64,000 nucleotides of DNA, taken from NCBI RefSeq assembly GCF_021028975.2, contig NC_059427.1, forward strand, positions 124,806,001-124,870,000, given 5' to 3'. Positions within the stretch are counted from its first letter, which is position 1, and each line of letters begins with the position of its first letter. The notes under the pieces were generated by a model that had not been told where the DNA came from, made no database searches, and saw nothing but the letters and a program-made list of their open reading frames with translations. The DNA is from Sphaerodactylus townsendi. Taxonomy: Eukaryota. The position numbers were made by a program, and so were the translations under genes. Shown in pieces: positions 1,744-16,185 of the stretch.

Positions 1744-1789
1744 GGAAAATTCTGGAATGTTCTAGGAAAGTTCTGGAACATTCTTGAAC
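1744..1789. promoter_or_regulatory. Heat shock element array (9 alternating nGAAn units)
   Basis: gGAAaaTTCtgGAAtgTTCt-a-gGAAagTTCtgGAAcaTTCttGAAc: 4 perfect units, a 1-nt slip, then 5 perfect units, about 100-140 bp upstream of the 14-3-3-like ATG. Confidence 0.75.
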
Positions 1790-2815
1790 AGCCAACCTAT
1801 TTCACACAAGCCGTGTGGCATTCTTTTGTCATGCTAAGTTTACAAAATTCTACTAAATGAATGATTTAGCAATCCTCCAGGGCAACTGATATGTGTAGAG
1901 TCTGAACAGAGGAGGTGAGTGTTAGGACAATCAAACGGAAATGTGGATTTAGCAGAGATGTGATTTAGCTGGACACTACAAATGACAGAATTCCAACGAT
2001 GTTGCAGATACTACACAATGACAGTATAAGAAGGCACAACACAACAAATCATTATTTGTAACCACTATAAGAAATGCAAAGCAAGGTGGTAACTTTTATT
2101 GGGCCACAAGTTATTTAAAAATTAATCAAATGAATTCACACTTATTGGTATGTAGCGATTTATAACCTTCTCCCCCTCCCCTTCTTTTTTACAAAGTTTG
2201 AAAGTGAGGGAATAATGATAAAATATAGTTCAAACAACAATAATCAGAGTACATGGAAGTAAAAAATACCAAACCACATAAAAAACCAACAACAATATAT
2301 GTGGACACCCCATCTTTAGTGATTTAAGAGAACTATGTATATAATGTAACCTGTTATGGCCTGATACCACAAACTGGTAAGAAATTAGACAAAGTAGTAC
2401 TTCCCATTTTCTTTGAGAGGGTGAAAGGGGGAGAGAGGGAGGTGGAATAGGGCAGGCAAGCAGTACAAGTCAGAAATTTAAACTAGTTTCATCCCTGGCA
2501 GTAGTCCACACTAGTGATTTATTTTATGTACATACCTCACCTTTCTCCCCAACAGAGGGAACCTAAAACAGCACACATATCCAAAGTGCATAGGATTAGC
2601 AGCCTCCAGGTGGGGCCTTTACTACTCCCGGCGGCCTTGAGCCTGGCCTTTGCAGGTATAGGGTGGGGTATAAATATAATAAAATAAGAATTAATCCATC
2701 TGATCTTCAGACTACAGAGCTTGGTTCCCTTGAAGGAAATAACAGCTTGGAAGGATGGGCTCTGCCTGAAGTAACACATCCCAGTCTAGTTCTCTCCCTT
2801 TATCAAACTCTATCC

Positions 2816-3271
2816 CAGTGGTGGCAAACCTATGGCACGGGTGCCAGAGATGGCACTCAGAGCCCTCTCTGTGGGCATGTGCAAACAAAGTTGCACCCCC
2901 CCCCCCACACACACACACACATATCTAGGCTGGCCTGGGCCACTGGGCTCAATTATTAGCATTAAACCTAAGACCTAGTTTTGGGGACGCAGTGTAGATA
3001 ACCCTGTTAAGCGCTGTTAAACCCCACTGATTTTCATACGAAGAACTAAAGCGCGATCCTTTACCTGCGAGTAAGCTCGGTTGCTTCAAAGCAAAGCCAC
3101 CGACTACCACCAAGCTTACTCCTGAGTAACGCACGCCTGGGAGCCAACCGTTTTTTTCTAAACTAAAACCTCAGTATTCAGGTTAAATTGCCGTGTTGGC
3201 ACTTTGCGATAAATAAGTGGGTTTTGTGTTGCAATTTGGGCACTCGGCCTCGAAAAGGTTCGCCATCACTG
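2816..3271. mobile_element. Non-autonomous hAT DNA transposon
   Basis: TIRs CAGTGGTGGCAAACCT...AGGTTCGCCATCACTG; perfect 8-bp TSD CTCTATCC at 2808-2815 and 3272-3279. Confidence 0.9.
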
Positions 3272-3707
3272 CTCTATCCTCTCCAGGCATCATCCCCAGT
3301 TATCCAGGAATTTCACGAACCGGAGTTGGTATTCTACATTGCACACACTTATCCAGAGATACATTATAAATTATTAATAGATGGGATTTACCCTTGCGCG
3401 CGCGTTTCAGAAATTAAGCCAGGGTTGGAGGGATCTCCAATAGCAACAGGGTTCAGAGGAACGAGGAAAGCTCTTTGGTTGCAAGTTCGAGGGCAGGATC
3501 CGAGTGCTTTCCGGAGACGACGGCGTTGGAAACAGGAGGGAGGTCTCTCCGCGAGAGGCGGATCCCGGGACTGCGAGACAGATCAATGGCGGAGAAGCGG
3601 CCATTCGGAGAGGGGCAAAATGGGGGCGTTTCTTCGGGCCTTATGTGGCGCGGGGTTATTTCCGCCCCCGGAGGCGAACTCTTAACTTGACGCGGCCGTC
3701 CTCTGGG

Positions 3708-7815
<4,108 letters not shown>

Positions 7816-8744: not shown

Positions 8745-16185
<7,441 letters not shown>

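Follow-up and report, generated by a model that had tools for sequence, protein, structure and literature searches.

A nine-unit heat shock element flanked by divergent RNA starts, next to a 14-3-3 gamma-like gene of the gecko Sphaerodactylus townsendi

In a stretch of 64,000 nucleotides of the genome of Sphaerodactylus townsendi (here called the window) we have found, at 1744-1789, an array of nine alternating GAA/TTC units that is, by its sequence, a canonical heat shock element (HSE), located upstream of an intronless gene for a 14-3-3 gamma-like protein. The explanation that we prefer, and to which we give somewhat better than even chances, is that its two blocks (4 + 5 units) likely bind trimers of heat shock factors (HSF) that activate this gene, probably in male germ cells and not solely in response to heat shock. 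It draws on the sequence and on analogy with known HSF targets.

Structure and conservation of the element

In the parts of PMC11059408 and PMC12366260 that deal with its definition, an HSE is formed by inverted nGAAn pentamers, at least three of them contiguous. The pattern scan located GAA at 1745, 1755, 1766, 1776 and 1786 and TTC at 1750, 1760, 1771 and 1781, i.e., the nine units already described in the first-pass annotation, which turn out to form a perfect block of four and a perfect block of five separated by one extra base at 1764. Both blocks thus contain at least three contiguous inverted nGAAn units, and all four minus-strand units read AGAAY. The same scan of the 64-kb window found no other perfect array of at least three GAA/TTC units. 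The suggestion that the array could hold about three HSF trimers agrees with the arithmetic of nine units but not with their phase, as the slip divides them into four and five. The features of this region are as follows.

1744 to 1763, no strand: HSE block A, four in-phase inverted nGAAn units (pattern scan)
1765 to 1789, no strand: HSE block B, five in-phase inverted nGAAn units, one base (1764) out of the phase of block A (pattern scan)
1743 to 1784, no strand: 21-nt tandem duplication accounting for the slip (direct-repeat comparison)
1760 to 1768, no strand: TTCN3GAA (GAS/BCL6-type) word TTCTAGGAA at the block junction (pattern scan)

In 120 Markov-simulated sequences of 64 kb (order 2 in 60, order 4 in 60) no slip-tolerant array exceeded four units, and an estimate assuming independence gives about 1e-9 per window for nine units. 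This last figure exaggerates the rarity, as 1743-1763 recurs directly as 1764-1784, a repeat of 21 nt with 18 of 21 positions identical. The fair null is a single four-unit array, duplicated once, plus one unit, and one four-unit array appeared in the simulations at 0.02-0.03 per 64 kb. None of the three positions at which the copies differ lies within a GAA/TTC core (chance P = 0.06).

The junction between the blocks had been annotated as an embedded STAT/BCL6-type site. The word TTCTAGGAA is indeed there, once in the window (0.87 exact 9-mers expected), together with a total of 19 TTCN3GAA words in the 64 kb. Since any 1-nt slip at a TTC-to-GAA junction makes TTCN3GAA, the word is an automatic product of the slip, neither beyond chance nor independent of the HSE. 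Judged from the sequence, it is most likely a by-product, and the annotation holds for the presence of the word but not for a separate signal.

The element shows neither the many similar copies of a repeat family nor the simple unit of a microsatellite. No second match to it was found within the 64-kb window, and a single record covers it in each of the contig sets X10 and X12, which argues against its belonging to a repeat family (this test covered whole-run contig sets of two organisms at 80% likeness). These two organisms are more distant relatives, about 9-10% diverged, and the region is found at equal length in both. The X10 contig spans 1540-2114 with 56 substitutions and 8 gap letters, and that of X12 spans 1203-2054 with 79 substitutions and 8 gap letters. 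All gap letters fall at 1888-1948, so that the element is without indels in both (P = 0.6 by chance alone). Among the X10 substitutions listed, 16 are found in the 99 nt at 1645-1743 and none at 1744-1748, which leaves unit 1 unchanged, followed by a spacer change at 1749. There are 38 further X10 changes in 1750-2114, from which about 2.5 hits in the cores would be expected if randomly placed; beyond 1750 their density is lower, though not significantly so (P = 0.12). X10 also carries changes in two words with TGAC, at 1712 and 1731.

Transcription on both sides of the element

RNA was aligned to positions 1201-2400 from the runs X16 and X17, unstranded short reads from a single study of a close relative (organism C) that shares 76-79% of sampled words with the window. 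In total we examined four of 18 runs (X10, X12, X16 and X17), leaving out X1-X9, X11 and X13-X15 (X11 and X13-X15 had small shares) and the RNA run X18. The features of the minus-strand gene are the following.

902 to 1648, minus: coding sequence of the 14-3-3 gamma-like protein, 248 codons without interruption, the phosphopeptide groove being altered (open reading frame, Pfam, alignment)
1683 to 1707, minus: approximate RNA 5'-end cluster of the 14-3-3-like gene (X16 depth and end pile-ups, which are not cap mapping)
730 to 735, minus: predicted poly(A) signal of the 14-3-3-like gene (from sequence, outside the RNA-aligned 1201-2400)
1681 to 1796, minus: intron implied by the protein model P0032, which would enclose the whole HSE (model without RNA support)

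The two runs, at similar read numbers, gave 1428 reads in X16 versus 4 in X17, a 344-fold difference. The depth in X16 was about 400 at 1441-1520 and descended to 116 at 1645, 49 at 1677, 20 at 1690 and 4 at 1705, with pile-ups of read ends at 1683 and 1693, and it was 0 at every listed place in 1708-1749 and in the 1721-1760 bin. The fall to 0 by 1708 indicates that the 14-3-3-like RNA starts at about 1683-1707 and that the element lies outside the transcript, being untranscribed in X16 at those places. The element is therefore about 40-100 nt upstream of the RNA 5' ends, a proximal-promoter position such as is usual for canonical HSEs, the location being taken from a single RNA run, made on a close relative, and not from cap mapping. 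As the first-pass annotation had remarked, the interval from the element to the minus-strand ATG (1648) contains no TATA-like word. The short leader contains no upstream ATG, and the promoter that bears the element is CpG-poor.

A public protein model, P0032 (267 aa, labelled Sphaerodactylus townsendi), contains the 248-residue protein letter for letter and adds 19 residues by way of a predicted intron spanning the HSE. We reject this intron as the main form: X16 reads pass unspliced through 1690-1705 and no such joint was listed. Seven X16 molecules end at 1683, 3 nt from the P0032 acceptor, and a minor spliced form of the P0032 type with very short overhangs may exist. An N-terminal extension through the element, where the frame stays open to 1801 (0.09 by chance), was also rejected, as all 19 related proteins checked start at the Met equivalent to 1648 and no RNA covers the extension. 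Three X16 reads have a joint on the opposite strand at 1201-1244, probably a library artefact.

On the other side of the element a second RNA begins and runs towards a plus-strand gene, from 3708 onward, which we take to be DCXR.

about 1797 to 1914, plus: divergent first exon, its 5' edge approximate, spliced into DCXR exons 2 and 3 (X16 reads)
1915 to 1920, plus: consensus 5' splice donor GTGAGT of the divergent exon (sequence and spliced reads)
3708 to 3756, plus: DCXR-like coding exon 1 with the ATG (3708), in a CpG-rich stretch, skipped by the divergent transcript
3848 to 3945, plus: DCXR exon 2, acceptor used by the divergent exon (X16 spliced reads)
4530 to 4684, plus: DCXR exon 3, acceptor used by the divergent exon (X16 spliced reads)

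The depth over the divergent exon in X16 was 10-20, about 20-21-fold weaker than that of the 14-3-3-like RNA. Ten reads were spliced from 1914, seven into exon 3 (4530) and three into exon 2 (3848/3849), and the splice signals place the exon on the plus strand. In X17 no reads of the divergent exon were found, i.e., the two RNAs co-occur in one of the two runs. In X16 the element fills about half of the untranscribed gap of ~90 nt between both starts. The DCXR exon with the ATG, in which the Gly-rich motif also starts, is missing from the divergent transcript, and through exon 4 this transcript has no in-frame start, only short ORFs; with the ATG exon skipped and no such start, DCXR protein is probably not made from it. 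It had been proposed that the element could also act on DCXR, with an ATG about 1.9 kb away. The distance is right (ATG at 3708) and an RNA beginning beside the element does splice into DCXR, but probably without giving DCXR protein. X12 lacks 7 nt at 1916, a deletion after which the divergent exon would nevertheless have a GT donor, and in organism C the ATG of a short ORF at 1891 is lost (T>C at 1892).

The 14-3-3 gamma-like protein and its clade

The product belongs to the 14-3-3 family (PF00244, E 4.5e-70) and its predicted fold is all-helical (pLDDT 90.4). The closest solved structure is 14-3-3 gamma, with a PDB sequence match of E 4e-77 and, for the predicted model, a TM of 0.91, rmsd 1.3 and about 55% identity. 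Two word-based, non-exhaustive searches retrieved ten relatives at 72-92% identity, all labelled as squamates (gecko, lacertid, cordylid, varanid, anguid, skink, boa, python and anole), the next matches being at 53% or less. Cluster members add one amphisbaenian and two unlabelled sequences, and no agamid or colubroid relative appeared in these searches. Among their named hits the gene would seem so far to be found only in lizards and snakes. A metagenome scan with the squamate alignment, covering 27 of 64 parts, gave 17 loci that were all generic 14-3-3s (35-49% identity) and none squamate. In a tree of 36 proteins the 19 gamma-like proteins formed one clade on a long branch, with support 100/100.

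We compared residues between the 19 members of the clade and 17 canonical 14-3-3s, using zeta numbering assigned by alignment. R56 is Cys in 19/19 of the clade versus Arg in 17/17 of the canonical proteins. The positions N50, G53, G169, L220, L227, A16 and E87, invariant in the 17, are altered in all 19, with G169 replaced by Ala and A16 by Cys throughout. R167, Arg in 16 of the 17, is replaced in every member. K49 is Thr in 4/19, including the protein of the window, and Y128 is Phe in 9/19 and His in the contig of one relative. R60, R127, N173, E180 and W228 are retained in 19/19. The canonical phosphopeptide pocket, with K49, R56, R127 and Y128 intact, is thus not present. In the relevant parts of the sources, R56, R127 and Y128 are given as phosphate contacts and the double change R56A/R60A abolishes binding (PMC10926215), and K49E is treated as binding-dead (PMC3006207). 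As the part of the source in question concerns the double mutant, and R60 and R127 are kept here, weakened or altered binding is a prediction: modelling and sequence suggest that the protein would keep the fold and bind phosphopeptides poorly or with changed specificity.

The clade-wide changes of the groove and the dimer face (R56C, A16C, G169A, E87K/R, L227Q/H) may be of more interest than the motif itself. In X10 none of the substitutions listed falls in the 139 coding bases 1506-1644, and many of those at 1250-1505 change the amino acid (Y128 among others); constraint looks stronger on the N-terminal dimer helices than on the groove.

The protein resembles vertebrate 14-3-3 gamma (YWHAG) in its fold, its best PDB match and the five retained residues, but differs from it in the groove residues changed in the whole clade and in lacking a coding intron. 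Canonical 14-3-3 gamma has a coding intron. With its uninterrupted coding sequence, the gene is likely an old retrocopy of 14-3-3 gamma. No papers on this squamate paralog were found in the open-access literature (subscription journals and most supplements lay outside this scope). A term search of the main texts of PMC3594293, PMC4795608 and 10.1101/2025.11.07.687289 found no mention of 14-3-3, YWHA, DCXR or HSF, and PMC12860763, in its one supplement, gave no match.

Proposed mechanism and comparison with known systems

According to part of PMC12366260, genes other than HSP genes are under the control of HSF1 and HSF2 in the mouse testis in the absence of stress, and discontiguous HSEs are tolerated by HSF2. 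HSF5 is described as recognising typical HSEs (part of PMC11417359) and as preferring a single triplet (part of PMC11059408). Four matches to the HSF5 heptamer, as given in that part of PMC11417359, are found in the element versus 0.25 expected per 46 nt, although they depend on the HSE itself. Our locus is like the mouse testis targets of HSF1 and HSF2 (Y-linked multicopy genes) and like HSF5 targets in being an HSE-bearing non-HSP gene with on/off, sample-specific expression; unlike the mouse testis targets, it is a reptile gene and apparently single-copy. The element itself is like the canonical HSE of HSF1, HSF2 and HSF4, with promoter-proximal inverted nGAAn pentamers, and departs from it in that its two blocks are offset one base by the 21-nt duplication, its target is not a heat-shock protein gene, and it is known here from sequence.

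The following sequence of events appears the most plausible. A four-unit HSE would have been duplicated with a period of 21 nt, about two helical turns, which would leave both blocks on the same side of the DNA. The promoter, without a TATA box and poor in CpG, would have paired core promoters with HSF1 or HSF2, possibly HSF5, bound between them, and trimers on both blocks would drive transcription toward the 14-3-3-like gene, the direction favoured in X16 about 20:1 over the reverse RNA. A consensus splice donor lying about 120 nt downstream would explain the survival of the latter, which would be a non-productive by-product; the element likely switches both RNAs on together. The typical spacing of the starts of divergent promoters resembles that of this locus. 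In having starts about 90-110 nt apart, a factor site between them and strong directionality, it is like divergent promoters with upstream antisense RNA, at which, in the part of PMC5557961 that treats them, divergent pairs of core promoters are where factors act, and genes with high expression show strong directionality. It differs from the usual case in that the antisense RNA is stable enough to be detected by ordinary RNA-seq and is spliced into the neighbouring DCXR.

Intronless copies are often testis-specific. By analogy (intronless copy, CpG-poor promoter, on/off pattern) the setting is probably the male germ line. A tissue programme accounts for the expression pattern no less well than a heat-shock response would.

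Alternative explanations

That the element is a functional HSF site for the 14-3-3-like gene would be quite probable, this weight being divided between the germ-line setting and its main rival, a classical stress switch, which we consider unlikely. In the stress switch HSF1 would induce the gene in somatic tissue on heat or proteotoxic stress, X16 would come from a stressed or stress-prone sample, and the product would be a phosphorylation-independent, chaperone-like protein. Nine units close to the start are the arrangement expected of strongly inducible genes, and the 344-fold difference between X16 and X17 fits induction as well as tissue specificity. Chaperone activity has been attributed to 14-3-3 proteins. 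HSF1 prefers long contiguous HSEs (part of PMC12366260), which speaks for the switch. Against it, the slip breaks the contiguity into 4 + 5, and no paper linking a lizard 14-3-3 to an HSE was found in the open-access literature. The array could also be an incidental 21-nt duplication of a chance four-unit word in a promoter driven by other factors, as the direct repeat is real and four-unit arrays arise at the simulated frequency given above. This requires a rare four-unit array, its duplication, a ninth unit in phase and the landing of all this in the 90-nt gap between starts, in a region old enough to be kept at equal length in the two genomes about 9-10% diverged, and we regard it as improbable.

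If the element were selected for an effect on DCXR, whether an increase or some other regulation, it would work by way of the alternative first exon or of the CpG-island promoter at a distance of 1.9 kb. This reading can appeal to the ten reads spliced from 1914 and to the GT donor that would remain in X12. With a divergent exon about 21-fold weaker than the 14-3-3-like RNA, the ATG exon skipped and no in-frame ATG through exon 4, it is very improbable, while transcriptional interference with DCXR is possible. Still less credible is a composite switch in which STAT or BCL6-family proteins at TTCTAGGAA would compete or cooperate with HSF: the exact word occurs once in the window and the slip length is kept in both relatives, but the word is forced by the slip, and its single copy has to be set against 0.87 expected and 19 words of the TTCN3GAA type.

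Coming back to HSF control of the 14-3-3-like gene, the HSE class is well known, but the open-access literature gave us no case in which a long HSE goes together with a squamate 14-3-3 whose groove has been rebuilt and with a divergent RNA spliced into DCXR. A broader proposal, possible but tentative and in its entirety rather doubtful, is that squamates carry an eighth, lineage-specific, gamma-derived 14-3-3 in which the phospho-pocket was lost and a new groove fixed, under a long HSE, i.e., an HSF-switched phosphorylation-independent chaperone or modulator of 14-3-3 dimers (in the germ line, or on heat in ectotherms), the same element also firing the DCXR-spliced non-coding RNA. If HSF drives the promoter, the heat-shock transcription system would be tied in lizards and snakes to a 14-3-3 paralog with a rebuilt and then conserved groove. 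This would provide a concrete gene for temperature coping in the germ cells, or in tissues, of ectotherms, and nature would have supplied a 14-3-3 for which activity independent of normal phosphopeptide binding is predicted. What is unusual here is the wiring and not the class of motif, which is familiar from textbooks. Independently of this, one public gene model that places the HSE in an intron (P0032) is corrected, and X16 reveals an alternative first exon of DCXR.

Other features of the region

The ordinary DCXR start is covered by a CpG-rich stretch at 3001-4200 (observed/expected 0.8-1.1), apart from the HSE promoter. Between both promoters, 2810-3280 resembles by eye what we presume to be a squamate interspersed repeat. 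A tandem repeat of 12-15 nt occupies 4281-4362, in the DCXR intron between exons 2 and 3. Farther along, the ORF pieces at 8988-9200 and 10137-10391, on the minus strand and tail-to-tail with DCXR, read like exons of what is presumably a Rac-family GTPase.
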